64,000 nucleotides of DNA from Escherichia phage fjerdesal: sequence record MN850605.1; one strand, given 5' to 3'. Shown here piece by piece: positions 27,809 to 35,140 of this stretch (position 1 is its first letter; each line of letters starts with the position of its first letter). The notes under the pieces were generated by a model that was not told where the DNA came from, searched no databases, and saw nothing but the letters and a program-made list of their open reading frames with translations. The translations under genes were made by a program, and so were the position numbers.

Positions 27809-30043
27809 CTAAACACCACAACCCTCGCAATAAGCATCTTGCAGTGCAGATTTACCTACACCAATGCGACTGTTAAGGTAGTACATGGTTTTCATACCTA
27901 CCGAGTTGGCATAAATCATGTACTTCAAAGCTTGAGACAATGATACCTTCTTAGCTTTTGCGTAGTCAACATAGAAATCTGAAGAGATAGCTTGACCAGT
28001 GAACTTTTGAACAATTGCATAACAATCAATCATATCAAAGGTGTCAATATCCCAAGCAATTTCATAGACATACTTCAACTCTTCATAATCTGGAACAATA
28101 AACAGTACGTTACCAGTTGCAGACTTTTTAGTTAAAATAAAGTCACGAATTGGATACAAGCCATTTGTCGTATTAGTTGCTAGTGAAGAACTCTCATTAG
28201 GCATGTAAGCTTCTAATACAGAGTTTCGGATTCCACCATTTTCTTTGATACGTTGTGCTAAGTCATCCCAATCATATCGTAGTTTTGCATCATGCTTTTC
28301 ATCAATCTTCTTGTTAGCTGTCTTTGGAGGAACCCAGCCTTCAGGATACTTAGTGAACTTCATGTATTCTGGAACACCACGCTCTTTAGCAAGTCTCAGA
28401 GAGGCTTCATGCAGATAGTAAGAGTGCATTTCAGCAAGCGCATGAAGCTTCGTTTTACCTGCTCGTGAAGAGTAGTTCACGTAGTTCTTCGCAAGGTAAT
28501 GAGCCACATTTGTAAGGCCAATCCCAACAGAACGACGCTTCTGAACATGGTTACGCATCGACGGATACGGATAATCCATAAGGTCAATAACGGAGTCAAC
28601 CATTGCAAGAGCATAATAAGCAACGTCAGCGTATTCATCTTCTGAAATTCTCCCTGCAACCAAACTAGCTAGGAAGCAAAGAGCCACCTCACCATCCTCT
28701 TTCACAGCATCGTCTCTGTAAAGGTCTGTCTCTTTCTCAAAACCATACACTGGCAATACAATTTCCATACAAAGATTTGACATCTTCAATGGTTCTTTAA
28801 ATGGTGTATGTGTGTTTGCATTGTTAGTGAAGAATGGGTACACACGACCTGTAGCATAACGCTGTTGAATAAACAGCTTAGCAATTTCACGAGCCTTTAC
28901 CCGTCTGTGCTTAACACCTGAATGTACTGCATGACCAACTGCCATAGCAAACTCATCAGCAGATGCTGTGTAGAACATGTCATAGAGTTTTGGTGCATCT
29001 TTGTAAGAGAATAGCAACCAATCTGTATCATACTGAACGCACTGCCAGAAATAATCGTTTGTGCCGAATGAGTAGTCCATCTCGTTAATACGTTTAGAAG
29101 GAACCGTTGTAGGGTGCTTCAAACGCAGTAAATCTTCAATCTGCGGGTCTAGAGCAGTGTAGAAGTTATTAGCTGAACCACCACGACTCTTCTGTTTGTT
29201 TGCCTCTACAGATGAACGTACAAGCTTGTAATAAGGTAGCTTACCCATGTGCTCAATAGTATTTTGACGGATACCATCACCAATAGTGCGAGTCTCCATC
29301 AGCATACCAATACCAGCTTGCTTTGTAGTCATATCATAAGCAACCTTTGCAGCAATACCAAGAGATTCAGCAGTATCATTTGCCTTAATCAAACAGCATG
29401 ACGCATAACCCGATTTAGTTGCTCTTAAACCGTTTAAATAAGGCGTAGGAGCGTTAATCTTCAGGTCAGATAGGTAAGTGTACAGTTTGATAACATCTTG
29501 CAGTCTACGGTGCTTTGGTTGCTTCTCAAAGGCTTTCATAGCCATACCCATAAACATAAATTGTGGTGACTCAAACAGTCTTCCCGTTTTAATATCACGG
29601 ATGCCGTACTTGTCTCTGAACTGTTTCAAGACTGCATAACCGTAAGAGATATCTTTTGAGTGCACGATGTAACCTTGCAGGTATTCAAGCTCTTCCTGTG
29701 AATAATCCATCTTCTCCCAAAGTCCTGCTCTCTCCATATTTTTAACGAAGGTAATCAGCGTAGGAACCTTAGTAAAGCCTCCAAAGGCTTCTTTGTAGAT
29801 AATCCCTAGAAGTAGCCGCCCAGCCATATCTGAGTACTCTTGAGTTTGTTTGTCAACACAAACATCAATCATGGCTTGGTGCATCTCTTTTGTGGTACAA
29901 CCTTCATAGACACGTTTCATAGCTTCCATAGTGACTTCTGACCAGATAATTCCACGCTTATCTGCCCATGATGCCCATTTATTCAATCTTTCTGGGTCAA
30001 AGCTTACTACTGTACCGTTTGATTTTTTAATTGTCTTAATCAT
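27809..30043 (-). CDS. nrdA: ribonucleotide reductase class Ia alpha subunit
   Basis: 744 aa; RNR large-subunit-like blocks (NLCMEI, C-terminal CEGCGV); adjacent nrdB. Confidence 0.9.
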   Translation of the reverse strand: MIKTIKKSNGTVVSFDPERLNKWASWADKRGIIWSEVTMEAMKRVYEGCTTKEMHQAMIDVCVDKQTQEYSDMAGRLLLGIIYKEAFGGFTKVPTLITFVKNMERAGLWEKMDYSQEELEYLQGYIVHSKDISYGYAVLKQFRDKYGIRDIKTGRLFESPQFMFMGMAMKAFEKQPKHRRLQDVIKLYTYLSDLKINAPTPYLNGLRATKSGYASCCLIKANDTAESLGIAAKVAYDMTTKQAGIGMLMETRTIGDGIRQNTIEHMGKLPYYKLVRSSVEANKQKSRGGSANNFYTALDPQIEDLLRLKHPTTVPSKRINEMDYSFGTNDYFWQCVQYDTDWLLFSYKDAPKLYDMFYTASADEFAMAVGHAVHSGVKHRRVKAREIAKLFIQQRYATGRVYPFFTNNANTHTPFKEPLKMSNLCMEIVLPVYGFEKETDLYRDDAVKEDGEVALCFLASLVAGRISEDEYADVAYYALAMVDSVIDLMDYPYPSMRNHVQKRRSVGIGLTNVAHYLAKNYVNYSSRAGKTKLHALAEMHSYYLHEASLRLAKERGVPEYMKFTKYPEGWVPPKTANKKIDEKHDAKLRYDWDDLAQRIKENGGIRNSVLEAYMPNESSSLATNTTNGLYPIRDFILTKKSATGNVLFIVPDYEELKYVYEIAWDIDTFDMIDCYAIVQKFTGQAISSDFYVDYAKAKKVSLSQALKYMIYANSVGMKTMYYLNSRIGVGKSALQDAYCEGCGV

Positions 30044-30753: not shown

Positions 30754-31480
30754 CCCCTTTTAACCAACACTTCAGGTTATTAGCATCATAATTCAGTTTC
30801 GGGTATGAGGTTACATGGAGCTGCTCACCATCATAGTAGATAATATCTGCAATCCATAGTCCATTCTCTTTACAGAAGTCTTTATCTGCTTTAGAGGTAA
30901 TTGGATTAACTTCTACAAAACCATCTACACCCAAATCCTTTAAGCTATCTACAATACCTTTGCAGATAACGCATGTCTCAGATACTACCACAAAAAGTTC
31001 TTGGCTTTCAAGTTCTACAATGTATTCACCAAGCTGTACTTTAGGGAGATTTGATTGCTTTATAATCTTCCCATCGGCTGCACGGACAATCGCATACCAC
31101 TCTTTACCATCAACTACTGACATTCTGATAACACACTCTTGACCAGTACGCTTTTCAATGTCTGCAAGACGTTTTAAAGCTTCTTCATAGTCATCTGTGT
31201 ACTTCAGGTCATTATTATGGCAAACAGCTTCCATAGCACCGTTATGGTCATGTTGTGACAGGTAAATCAAACCGTCAAGAACATATTGTAAATCTGCCTG
31301 AGCATCCAGTGTCTCAATGGGGTCTTTCTCTTCAATTGCTTTTACAAGCTCTTTTGCTTCTTCAAGCATACACAGAGATTGAGATTTTAAAGATTCCCAA
31401 TACTCATCACTGTAAGGTTGCTTTTGAGTGTTTCCACAACGAAGGTTCCAGTTTTTTACTGATTCTCTTGAGTTAAACAT
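30725..31480 (-). CDS. hypothetical protein (N-terminal region weakly MazG-like)
   Basis: LEEAKELVKAIEE...DAQADLQYVLDGL is only suggestive. Confidence 0.35.
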   Translation of the reverse strand: MFNSRESVKNWNLRCGNTQKQPYSDEYWESLKSQSLCMLEEAKELVKAIEEKDPIETLDAQADLQYVLDGLIYLSQHDHNGAMEAVCHNNDLKYTDDYEEALKRLADIEKRTGQECVIRMSVVDGKEWYAIVRAADGKIIKQSNLPKVQLGEYIVELESQELFVVVSETCVICKGIVDSLKDLGVDGFVEVNPITSKADKDFCKENGLWIADIIYYDGEQLHVTSYPKLNYDANNLKCWLKGVGYNGFTEH

Positions 31481-31719
31481 TCGGACTCCTTAAAATATTT
31501 GTTAACCTTTAGCTCTCGTGTTTCAATATACTCTAGATGCTCACGTAGCTCTTGACGTTTAAGCATTAGGTGCTGCATTTGAGATTCAACAGCTTCAACT
31601 TCTTTAATTATTGACTCTCTAGCATTTGCAAGAACGCGCTCAAGTTCTTCAATCTTGCTGTCAACTTTTGCTACATGACTCACAGCTTTACTTTTGTTAA
31701 ACATTTTATTCTCTCTCAA
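31456..31719 (-). CDS. hypothetical coiled-coil protein
   Basis: ORF. Confidence 0.35.
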   Translation of the reverse strand: MRENKMFNKSKAVSHVAKVDSKIEELERVLANARESIIKEVEAVESQMQHLMLKRQELREHLEYIETRELKVNKYFKESECLTQENQ

Positions 31720-31725
31720 TAGTTA

Positions 31726-32226
31726 TCAAGCACAATTTGCTTTCATGACCTTATGGATTCTTTTTTCAGCATCTTCATAAGTTTCTTTAGTAATAAACTT
31801 AATTGCTGCAATATTGGCATTGTAGAAGAGTCTGAGCTTCGAGTCAATCCTTTTTGTCATTACATCGAATTTATGTTGAAGGTTTGCTTCACCATAGACT
31901 AGGCCACCTTTTGTGTAGTAGGTCTGAATAATGTAAAAGTCAAAAAATTCTTTTCCAAAGCTTTCAATATCTTTTTTAATATACTCAGAAGAAGTCTCAT
32001 AAGTCATCCAATCACTTTCCTTAGTGACTACCTTCTTCCGAGTCTTGCCAGCAACTTTTCTTTTGGTCACACTGTTAAGCTGTTTCTTACCCAAATAGTA
32101 CTGTCCAGTCTTTTTGCAGTACACTAGGTAGACAAAACCAAAGTGCTTTGCTGGGTCAACTTCACCACATAGTGAAACCCAATGTCCATATTCAGGACAA
32201 TTGCCAAAACCTTTTATTTTTCTCAT
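31726..32226 (-). CDS. GIY-YIG-like nuclease (putative homing endonuclease)
   Basis: FGFVYLVY...(10 aa)...YYLGKK fits the GIY-(10-11)-YIG spacing. Confidence 0.45.
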   Translation of the reverse strand: MRKIKGFGNCPEYGHWVSLCGEVDPAKHFGFVYLVYCKKTGQYYLGKKQLNSVTKRKVAGKTRKKVVTKESDWMTYETSSEYIKKDIESFGKEFFDFYIIQTYYTKGGLVYGEANLQHKFDVMTKRIDSKLRLFYNANIAAIKFITKETYEDAEKRIHKVMKANCA

Positions 32227-32747
32227 TCATAAGCTTCTCCGTGATTTGTAAACTCTTTATGGAGTTCTTCTCTTTTCTTTTTGACAACTAATTCAGCCTC
32301 AGCGATAGAGTCAAATAAACCTAGATGATAGCAAACTTTATTATGCTTGACTTGTGCAGCCCATCTACCTCTTTGCTTATGGTAATATACACCCTTCACA
32401 CCAGATTTATTATCTCTTCTTTTGGCTGCATTACAGTTATTATCTGACCTGCTACACTCTCTCAAATTGTCGAACCAGTTGTCGTGCCTGATACCATTCT
32501 TATGGTCAACAAATTTTGGTAGGTATCCTTTCATATACAAGAATGCCAGTCTGTGTGCTGCATATCTTTTCCCGAAGAGTTTTATGTAGATATAACCACT
32601 ATGATGTTTAAGACCCGCTACTGAGCCAGCTTTGGCCTTACCTTTTCTATTAACTAACCAAGTAAAGACCCCTGTTTCGGGGTCATAGTGCAGGTATTCT
32701 TTAAGAGTTTGTTGGGTTAACATTTGGTGTCCATCCATACTTATCAA
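32223..32747 (-). CDS. HNH homing endonuclease with AP2-type DNA-binding domain
   Basis: HNH block YAAHRLAFLYMKGYLP...VDHKNGIRHDNWFDNLRECS...N; AP2-like SGVKGVYYHKQRGRWAAQV. Confidence 0.65.
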   Translation of the reverse strand: MISMDGHQMLTQQTLKEYLHYDPETGVFTWLVNRKGKAKAGSVAGLKHHSGYIYIKLFGKRYAAHRLAFLYMKGYLPKFVDHKNGIRHDNWFDNLRECSRSDNNCNAAKRRDNKSGVKGVYYHKQRGRWAAQVKHNKVCYHLGLFDSIAEAELVVKKKREELHKEFTNHGEAYE

Positions 32748-33747
32748 AAGTGAAATCGTCTTTCTTATTTCTTTCCTGATAAGCTAAGAAAAAGTGTTGC
32801 TGCATTAACTCTAAAGGTGTTCTGGTAATTGTTTGACCATCCCACGAGACATAAGTGTATGACTCTTTCTTAGCATAAAGCTCATAAATTGCATCAAGAC
32901 ACTCTTTGTAAGTGGTTTTACCTTCAAGGGCTTTCATTATAGTAACCTTACCAACACCCTTTAAACCGAAATAATTATCCGCATTATCACCAGCCACGGC
33001 TTGATAGCAAAGAAATTTAAAACCTACCCCAACTGTCTTCTTAGCTTTGGGTGTCGATTTTATTGGGCAATCCCAAATTTCACCAACGTTGTTATCAGCA
33101 ATGAAAATCAAAGGTGACTTTTCATAGGTCATATCAATGCAGTAAGTCCCTTCAGCTTGGCGAAGGTCTTTATCAATACTCATCAAGGCAGCCTTTTTAC
33201 CCATCTTTTCAGCTTTAGCAATAACGATAGAGTCAGCTTCGAATCCATCAAGAATTAGCTTGAACTCTGGCCTTGACAGAAGATACTCGCGACAAGCAAC
33301 TAAGTGTGTTGGTGTGACAGCATCTTTACGGTTACCTTGATATTGGTGCTCAAGACCTTTAATGTCTTTATGTTTATGCACACCTTTCTCTGTTAAATAA
33401 CCTACCCAAGTTCTTTCTTTACCAACAACCTTAAGCCATTCCTGAAGCACCTGTTGAGTAGCCATGATAGCTTCTTTTTCACTCTTAGCTTCTTTCCAAG
33501 TCTGTCTTTCCCATTCATCTTCATCAAATGTCAGGCCAAGCTCTTCCACAAGGATTCTCTGGTCTGCTAACCATCTTGCAGCATCTTTCGCATTATCAAA
33601 CGAATCAGATTCTTCTGCTGTGAGTTTATTGACATATTTATATTTTGCTTTCTCAACTACACAAGCACCTTTATAGGCAATACTGTCAGAGTCAATAAAA
33701 ACATGTGTAACTGAATCGGGAAGTTTTGTTAATGTGTACTTCTCCAT
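32701..33747 (-). CDS. rnh: 5'-3' exonuclease / flap endonuclease (RNase H-like)
   Basis: H3TH-type motif AVAGDNADNYFGLKGVGKVT; acidic clusters VFIDSDS and ILDGFEADS. Confidence 0.65.
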   Translation of the reverse strand: MEKYTLTKLPDSVTHVFIDSDSIAYKGACVVEKAKYKYVNKLTAEESDSFDNAKDAARWLADQRILVEELGLTFDEDEWERQTWKEAKSEKEAIMATQQVLQEWLKVVGKERTWVGYLTEKGVHKHKDIKGLEHQYQGNRKDAVTPTHLVACREYLLSRPEFKLILDGFEADSIVIAKAEKMGKKAALMSIDKDLRQAEGTYCIDMTYEKSPLIFIADNNVGEIWDCPIKSTPKAKKTVGVGFKFLCYQAVAGDNADNYFGLKGVGKVTIMKALEGKTTYKECLDAIYELYAKKESYTYVSWDGQTITRTPLELMQQHFFLAYQERNKKDDFTFDKYGWTPNVNPTNS

Positions 33748-33809: not shown

Positions 33810-34667
33810 TTAGTCTTCTGTGTCGAAGTCTTCATCTTCTTCGTCATCTGGGTCTGGCAAATCTTCATCATCACCATCATCAGAAGTATTCGAAGATTTA
33901 TGGTCTGTTGCGTCTTCTTCAGTGATTTCACCGTTATCTTCAACACCATCAAGACCAAGCATAGCCAGTTCATCTTCATCCAGTTCAGGTTCACCATTAG
34001 CACCGTTACCACCAGTGTAAGGTACAAGGGTATCAATGATAAACTGTTCCTGAATAGGTTTTGTCAGAACATTGTTCTCAAAAGTGTAGAAGTGAGTAGA
34101 AAGAATCACACTACCAAAAGAACCGTTACCAACTGCGATATCTGGATGAATTACATCATAGTTCTTGTCATCTTCATGTTTATCAGATGCTTGAGCTTTG
34201 ATTTTCTTCATCGGCTGCTTAACAGCTACACGCTTACCATTTACTTCTTCAATCAGCATTACAGGGAATGACTGTTTAGCTGTCCATACAGCACCATCTT
34301 TATAAGCTGCTGCACGACTTACTTTCAAGATGTAGTAGGTGTCTGCTTCAAAAGGTGGTTTACAACCAAACTTCTCTTCGAAGTCATCTGCATCAACTGC
34401 TTCAGTAGTAACTTTGTCCCAGCCTTCTGGGTTTTTCTTAGACTTAGTAAACTCTTTAAACAGCTTGTTACCATCTTCTGCCAGAATTGACACACTGTAG
34501 TTACAGTCTTTGCCTGGGAATTTCTTATCAATAGACTTACCTTTCCCCGGACGTGGTGAAGTATTCAGGTAATAAAACCAGACATCTTTCAGCAGGTAAC
34601 GCAGAGTTTGACGTTCAGTACCGTTGTATTTCTCTACCGGAGCTTTCATTTTAACAACTTTAGACAT
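33810..34667 (-). CDS. putative single-stranded DNA-binding protein
   Basis: strongly acidic C-terminal tail (DDGDDEDLPDPDDEEDEDFDTED) and position in the replication module. Confidence 0.45.
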   Translation of the reverse strand: MSKVVKMKAPVEKYNGTERQTLRYLLKDVWFYYLNTSPRPGKGKSIDKKFPGKDCNYSVSILAEDGNKLFKEFTKSKKNPEGWDKVTTEAVDADDFEEKFGCKPPFEADTYYILKVSRAAAYKDGAVWTAKQSFPVMLIEEVNGKRVAVKQPMKKIKAQASDKHEDDKNYDVIHPDIAVGNGSFGSVILSTHFYTFENNVLTKPIQEQFIIDTLVPYTGGNGANGEPELDEDELAMLGLDGVEDNGEITEEDATDHKSSNTSDDGDDEDLPDPDDEEDEDFDTED

Positions 34668-34739
34668 TATTTAAACCTCTATCTCAATTTATGAAGAGTA
34701 CCAATTCTAATTTGTTGATACTCTATTGTCAAATACTAA

Positions 34740-34889: not shown

Positions 34890-35140
34890 GATATTCTCCG
34901 ATATACTTGATATTCAAACACATTTTCTTTAATTATAAACAGCCAGCTAATATTATGCTGAGGCAGCGCAATGATGACTGTAATCATGCTCTGGTGGAAA
35001 TCTTGTTTTATCTCAACTTCCCCATCGCATTTCATGTGGAGCATTCTATAGAACCTATCAATCTTTGTCAAACACTCTTCCTGAAATTTATTTAAACTTT
35101 TTCTTCAAAGAAGGGTGTGAACCCCTCTCTTTTATAACTA

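Follow-up and report, generated by a model that had tools for sequence, protein, structure and literature searches.

A probable free-standing HNH-AP2 homing endonuclease gene beside a probably fixed GIY-YIG nuclease gene in Felix O1-type phages

Two short nuclease-like genes lie in tandem between an exonuclease gene and the nrd genes in the window, the 64,000-nt stretch of phage DNA analysed here. The initial annotation took both for homing endonuclease genes that had invaded intergenic space. Is each of these genes mobile, and where exactly did an insertion occur? As first described, the two open reading frames stand back to back at 31726-32226 (ORF A, GIY-YIG) and 32223-32747 (ORF B, HNH-AP2); both are on the minus strand, head to tail, and the TGA stop of ORF B overlaps the ATG start of ORF A (ATGA, 32226-32223). 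The features of the region are as follows.

27809-30043: nrdA, downstream of ORF A with four small genes in between, one of them MazG-like
31726-32226, minus strand: ORF A, SegE-type GIY-YIG gene, 166 aa, ATG start, catalytic domain only
32223-32747, minus strand: ORF B, HNH-AP2 gene; longest reading frame 174 aa from TTG 32747; stop TGA at 32225-32223
32701-33747, minus strand: 5'-3' exonuclease/FEN gene, conserved host gene with the insertion site in its 3' end
33810-34667, minus strand: gene of a 285-aa protein
34704-34732 and 35043-35071, minus strand: two strong sigma-70-like promoter matches

The 5-kb stretch around the two genes shows 98.7% identity to Escherichia phage dune, which places the window in Felixounavirus. 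The same stretch matches 258 phage records, nearly all of them Felix O1-type myoviruses (Felixounavirus and Mooglevirus, subfamily Ounavirinae). Every gene of the stretch is carried by the minus strand, and the order of transcription runs from primase/helicase through small ORFs, the 285-aa protein with an acidic tail, the 5'-3' exonuclease, ORF B and ORF A to an 87-aa coiled-coil protein, a MazG-like pyrophosphatase, two small ORFs and nrdA. The exonuclease product matched phrog_107 (1.2e-65), and its counterparts in relatives are annotated as exonuclease; Pfam 5_3_exonuc matches were below the cutoff, and NCBIfam matches to 5'-3' exonuclease/Pol I N-terminal models were weak. Of the initial label "RNase H/FEN" for this neighbour, the FEN part stands, and "RNase H" is loose.

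The 285-aa protein, encoded between the primase/helicase and exonuclease genes, belongs to phrog_3877, to which no function is assigned, and ends at its C-terminus in a very acidic stretch (...DDEEDEDFDTED). This tail and the place of the gene suggest that the protein binds single-stranded DNA. The two sigma-70-like matches have identical hexamers (TTGACA, 17-nt spacer, TAGAAT; 11/12) and stand upstream of the small ORFs and of the 285-aa gene. Felixounavirus-related sequence also appeared under unrelated host names, in MG065664 and MG065668 ("Campylobacter phage A132/A126", about 96% identity to the window) and in protein P0008, labelled "Methanobrevibacter gottschalkii"; OK283618 ("Listeria phage LPML1") matched the window at about 70% identity over part of the query only. 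These records are probably mislabelled or contaminated.

The domains initially proposed for both genes were recovered by HMM searches, with all three Pfam matches above their cutoffs. ORF B matched PF13392 (HNH_3; E 9.6e-13, 48.0 bits, cutoff 24.8) and, at its C-terminal end, PF00847 (AP2; 4.3e-08), where 33.8 bits is barely above the cutoff of 33.3. It contains a beta-beta-alpha-metal finger (VDHKNG...DNWFDNLR...SDNN) in which D73, H74, N86 and N98 occupy positions that do not vary among 40 homologs, H74 being the catalytic His in the 166-aa numbering, and it aligns with the I-HmuI core. From these features, ORF B encodes a complete HNH nuclease of the I-HmuI type that ends in an AP2 domain. 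The NCBIfam search gave no match for either ORF A or ORF B. A terminase-associated HNH protein of the HK97 type was considered for ORF B and ruled out by its location and dispensability. The sequence of ORF B is 100% identical to a gene of phage adrianh that is already annotated in GenBank.

The 47-nt overlap with the exonuclease gene, part of the initial description, holds if ORF B starts at TTG 32747. With ATG 32738, the start annotated in phage dune, the product has 171 aa and the overlap is 38 nt; with ATG 32723, it has 166 aa, which fits the usual homolog length of 161-170 aa (166 modal), and the overlap is 23 nt. Either ATG is a likelier start than the TTG, and from all three the gene overlaps the exonuclease 3' end. 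No strong Shine-Dalgarno sequence was found at any of these candidate starts; ATG 32723 has GGA six bases upstream.

Synteny with relatives that lack the HNH gene defined the insertion points. Alignment with JK55, Michonne and 16 further empty loci delimits a 491-bp insertion with the following parts.

32240-32730, minus strand: putative mobile insertion of 491 bp, present here and absent from empty-site relatives; boundaries ambiguous by a few bases
32701-32730, minus strand: substitute exonuclease tail and stop (TPNVNPTNS, then stop), nine residues that come with the insertion; the start of the HNH gene overlaps this segment
32223-32240, minus strand: last HNH codons (GEAYE) and TGA stop, in DNA aligning with the old exonuclease tail of the empty site

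With slashes marking the edges of the insertion, the empty junction reads TGG/GAGCCGTGTATGAATGAAGATTAA and the occupied one TGG/ACACC...CACG/GAGAAGCTTATGAATGA. In full, the empty site is ...TTT AAG AAA TAT AAT TGG / GAG CCG TGT ATG AAT GAA GAT TAA, and the occupied site is ...TAT GGA TGG / ACA CCA AAT GTT AAC CCA ACA AAC TCT TAA ... CAC G / GA GAA GCT TAT GAA TGA. The exonuclease of empty sites has 346 aa and ends in ...FKKYNWEPCMNED before its stop, and that of all occupied loci has 348 aa and ends in ...FDKYGWTPNVNPTNS. At empty sites, the GIY start codon lies 11 nt inside the exonuclease gene (11-nt overlap). At the HNH 3' end, GGAGAAGCTTATGAATGA of the occupied sequence aligns with GGGAGCCGTGTATGAATGA of the empty one, and the HNH frame appears to leave the insertion here and to read the DNA of the old exonuclease tail in a different frame. 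Because the cassette brings a substitute tail and stop, and borrows its own last codons and stop from the old tail, both neighbours, exonuclease and GIY, stay intact after the insertion. As aligned, the insertion falls within the final exonuclease codons, where two genes overlap, and not in intergenic space; the idea of an intergenic invasion must be given up.

The empty junction, as in JK55 or Alf5, includes TTTAAGAAATATAATTGGGAGCCGTGTATGAATG. It contains GGGAGCCG, a GC-rich island within an AT-rich gene that is split by the insertion. AP2 domains have been reported to favour GC-rich targets, and we put forward GGGAGCCG as a suggested target of the HNH-AP2 protein.

To describe the distribution of the insertion, distant blastn searches were done with 31200-33300 as the query. 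Coverage was full in 91 records; about 170 Felixounavirus and Mooglevirus records cover only 76% of the query with a span 494 bp shorter, lacking the HNH gene and keeping all else. The site is thus occupied in about 91 of about 261 related records, i.e. about a third, and empty in about two thirds. Among 34 aligned loci (the window and 33 related loci, 5 from GenBank and 28 from IMG/VR), 18 are empty and 16 are occupied. The occupied loci carry three alleles of the HNH gene: the window type, W (6 loci), A (6 loci, with ekra, wV8 and Moogle among the carriers) and B (4 loci, with VpaE1 and EC6). The alleles share 56-60% protein identity and one common site, and the catalytic motif is kept in all of them. 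Within each allele, the dN/dS of 0.05-0.13 indicates that intact copies are under purifying selection, and one decayed copy was found, in Si3, where a 1-nt deletion within a hairpin near the 5' end of the gene leads to a frameshift after about 23 codons. Two outgroup phages, Erwinia phage Rouille (Kolesnikvirus) and Hafnia phage SarahDanielle, have the end of the exonuclease gene directly against the start of the GIY gene or running into it, which indicates that the empty state is ancestral, and outgroup genera never carry the HNH gene. Presence/absence polymorphism, precise boundaries, three alleles, a decayed copy and empty outgroups all speak for the initial assignment of the HNH-AP2 gene to free-standing homing endonucleases.

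The HNH-AP2 family is widespread in phages. The homologs of ORF B occupy 4560 places in 2818 phage records, including T5-, T1-, Jersey- and Kuttervirus-type phages, and among them is a T5-group gene annotated as "nicking homing endonuclease F-TflVIII". Other Felixounaviruses have an HNH paralog that overlaps the 3' end of their DNA polymerase gene or lies against it, as in JK55 (locus L036, 777-1328), REP10 (L037, 739-1272) and L27 (L059); the DNA polymerase gene of REP10 is annotated as two pieces. No HNH paralog of the DNA-polymerase type was detected in the window, and no paralogs of ORF A or ORF B were found elsewhere in it. The Felix O1 genome paper of 2010 counted six HNH copies (PMC3185647), and later comparative work found variable HNH numbers (PMC8300805).

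Does the GIY-YIG gene share this behaviour? ORF A matched PF19835 (SegE_GIY-YIG; 8.9e-27, 94 bits, cutoff 25), and the GIY-YIG fold was backed by fold comparison; searches of solved structures by sequence, with the single protein or a 40-sequence profile, found no nuclease, and the fold comparison alone did. None of G30, Y33, Y44, G46, K48, W73, Y76, S79, E113 and N136 varies among 40 diverse relatives, and no unambiguous Arg equivalent to I-TevI R27 was identified in ORF A. From these residues, ORF A is very probably an active nuclease. Residues about 50-70 (KRKVAGKTRKKVV) make up a strongly basic hairpin insertion. A HMMER search of 1.84 billion representatives returned 1304 relatives, with the match spanning residues 12-160 of the 166; they comprise short forms of 135-200 aa, which are common, and long forms of 225-390 aa with NUMOD3-like C-terminal repeats. 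ORF A lacks the C-terminal DNA-binding module (NUMOD, HTH or zinc finger) of its longer relatives, which does not prove that it lacks specificity, short forms being common in the family. The label "NAD synthetase" that this gene bears in phrog_447 and RefSeq, in Ounavirinae and cyanophages, was rejected, with no support from Pfam, NCBIfam or the fold.

At the DNA level, ORF A was found in 297 records at 297 places, Erwinia, Hafnia and Cronobacter phages of the Ounavirinae included. In all of them, Kolesnikvirus and Hafnia phages too, it is located between the exonuclease (or HNH) gene and the 87-aa gene. A tblastn search extended this to 696 records and 699 places, the extra records being mostly T4-like cyanophages with one short copy each; the short form is single-copy in all Ounavirinae and in several hundred T4-like cyanophage records. 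Between Felixounavirus and Mooglevirus, its dN/dS is 0.03-0.05, with dS saturated between these genera. ORF A is probably a fixed core nuclease, conserved in Ounavirinae and not mobile.

These data bear on the reading in which both genes are homing endonucleases and form a two-gene island, the GIY gene being an old invader fixed in Ounavirinae that still homes into, or excludes, other phages. No absence allele of the GIY gene exists in the 297 records, which cover at least four lineages with one copy per genome and the same boundaries. The dN/dS of 0.03-0.07, over saturated dS, equals that of the exonuclease gene and would be unexpected for a purely selfish gene after fixation. The SegE-type domain does have intact catalytic residues, its closest long relatives are Seg-like with NUMOD3-type tails, and nuclease genes cluster in other phages (PMC10448857), but ORF A itself is without a DNA-binding module. 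GenBank annotators also named it "GIY-YIG homing endonuclease"; its ancestral overlap of 11 or 8 nt with the exonuclease gene rather suggests an integrated operon member. We consider the two-gene island unlikely, and the initial assignment of ORF A to homing endonucleases is not supported, in view of the lack of polymorphism, the missing module and the strong purifying selection.

The window and VpaE1 are 98-100% identical on both sides of the HNH gene, yet their HNH proteins share 59% identity (W versus B allele). Allele W was seen with three GIY 5' haplotypes (MKIKG, MRKIKG and MIKVKG). The presence of one allele in three downstream haplotypes and of different alleles in near-identical flanks points to repeated recombination exactly at the junctions. 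A hybrid exonuclease tail was found in locus L012. Covariation with the insertion is confined to approximately 60 nt at the exonuclease 3' end and to 60-120 nt at the start of the GIY gene, and even this linkage is not strict: the GGT/GGA codon typical of occupied sites is also found in some empty loci of Mooglevirus type. The window itself is mosaic at 32107-32226: its HNH gene is of type W, yet the first approximately 120 nt of its GIY gene (MRKIKG) match B-type carriers at 98-100% and other W-type carriers at only 77-82% (compared loci L008 (VpaE1), L009 and L011). Between ekra and JK55, identity drops over 600 bp in the 3' half of the exonuclease gene. This block was rejected as a co-conversion tract, its haplotype being found also in empty-site phages (L016) and with another allele (L012).

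Could the HNH-AP2 gene instead be an ancient accessory gene that is not currently mobile, inherited vertically and lost by repeated deletion, with alleles that are old lineages reshuffled by ordinary recombination? The dS of type-A HNH genes between Moogle and ekra, about 1.4-1.7, is comparable to that of flanking genes between the two genera, so part of the polymorphism could reflect ancient inheritance and loss, not recent homing. The purifying selection on the alleles and the large exonuclease 3' haplotype block, unlinked to occupancy, are also compatible with this history. It would require, however, that all 18 of the 18 empty sites, which share one precise junction and an intact 11-nt overlap and are arranged as in the outgroups, arose by identical clean deletions that also restored the original exonuclease tail, which is implausible. 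The occurrence of one allele in three flank backgrounds and of different alleles in near-identical flanks runs counter to it as well, as does the fact that the family is multi-copy at other conserved-gene 3' ends. We regard this history as improbable. That the GIY-YIG protein descends from a nuclease but now binds DNA or regulates without catalysis, as I-TevI does when it acts as a repressor, is very improbable: its small size and strongly basic hairpin insertion would suit such a role, but the tyrosines and glycines of GIY and YIG, E113 and N136, invariant in the 40 relatives, are all present in ORF A.

The reading that we favour, and hold with good though not full confidence, is that the two genes differ in nature, the HNH-AP2 gene coding for a free-standing homing endonuclease and the GIY-YIG gene for a fixed, non-mobile nuclease. 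By analogy with studied systems, we infer homing by the HNH protein. In the ancestral state, the exonuclease and GIY genes overlap by 11 nt, and it is there, at the very end of the exonuclease coding sequence, that the 491-bp cassette was inserted. During mixed infection, the AP2 domain would position the I-HmuI-like HNH domain, which would nick or cut the exonuclease/GIY junction of a competing Felix O1-type genome whose site is empty. Repair by recombination, with the occupied genome as template, would then copy the cassette with short flanks into the empty one; in the occupied allele, the target site is split by the insertion, which would make this allele immune. For the GIY nuclease, the most plausible role is one in DNA metabolism that is useful to the phage, co-expressed or translationally coupled with the exonuclease. 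It could nick host or competitor DNA to feed the exonuclease, or process recombination intermediates; this proposal is based on the gene context (SSB-like protein, exonuclease, GIY nuclease, MazG, Nrd) and on analogy with T4 EndoII and T7 gp3/gp6. A search for literature on host DNA degradation by Felixounaviruses found nothing usable.

The 5' end of the HNH gene contains a further conserved element.

32667-32684, minus strand: GC-rich hairpin GACCCC-GAAACA-GGGGTC (GACCCCGAAACAGGGGTC), followed by TTTAC; perfect 6-bp stem in HNH codons 14-19 (DPETGV)

The hairpin was flagged as terminator-like by the scan and occurs once in the window. Around it, 31 nt are unchanged across alleles W, A and B and the DNA-polymerase-side paralogs, with the surrounding DNA only about 50% identical, and exact matches to the hairpin 23-mer in IMG/VR were solely in Ounavirinae contigs. 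Its folding energy is -12.6 kcal/mol, versus -2.7 for nearly the same peptide in a Jerseyvirus homolog, which has no hairpin. The hairpin may act as a brake on expression, serve as a processing site or provide homology through which paralogs convert one another. We also advance, as a tentative possibility, that the GIY protein is a domesticated homing-endonuclease domain, now a core DNA-metabolism enzyme, and the hairpin a cis-acting control or recombination element shared by paralogs. If so, the domesticated GIY nuclease and the adjacent 5'-3' exonuclease would degrade host or competitor DNA, in a role like that of T4 EndoII or T7 gp3/gp6.

The finding is ordinary, since public records already carry annotations for both genes. 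For Felix O1-type phages, HNH homing endonuclease genes have been on record since the genome paper of 2010, and the result matters little beyond annotation hygiene. It corrects one annotation, ORF A being neither demonstrably mobile nor an NAD enzyme, but a conserved nuclease; this correction and the conserved hairpin are two modest by-products. The exonuclease/GIY junction is a natural, well-sampled homing site (empty and three alleles) that could serve as a simple HNH-AP2 homing system. For therapeutic Felixounaviruses, such elements shape recombination between co-infecting phages.

Among known systems, ORF A is nearest to T4 SegE and the other Seg-type enzymes (PF19835) and to the catalytic domain of I-TevI (PDB 1LN0). 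It differs from Seg-type enzymes in having no C-terminal DNA-binding region, no sporadic distribution and strong long-term purifying selection. T4 endonuclease II (DenA, PDB 2WSH) is a small, non-homing GIY-YIG nuclease that nicks host DNA; it has no detectable sequence similarity to ORF A, and the two may be functional analogues.

The closest known proteins to ORF B are I-HmuI of Bacillus phage SPO1 (PDB 1U3E) and the F-Tfl nicking enzymes of the T5 group. The C-terminal modules of I-HmuI are helical/HTH, and ORF B has an AP2 domain instead; I-HmuI is intron-encoded, whereas ORF B is free-standing and overlaps two coding genes. With its N-terminal HNH and C-terminal AP2 domains, ORF B is an ordinary member of the HNH-AP2 homing endonuclease family (Magnani et al. 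2004, as cited in PMC10448857), with no architectural difference. The T4 enzymes SegF, SegG and MobE, the last described in PMC2790892, are examples of intronless homing. Like ORF B, their genes lie between or overlap conserved replication and nucleotide-metabolism genes, and show presence/absence among close relatives and flank exchange. Unlike for these enzymes, homing by ORF B is deduced, and its insertion replaces the last codons of the upstream gene in place of occupying a spacer.
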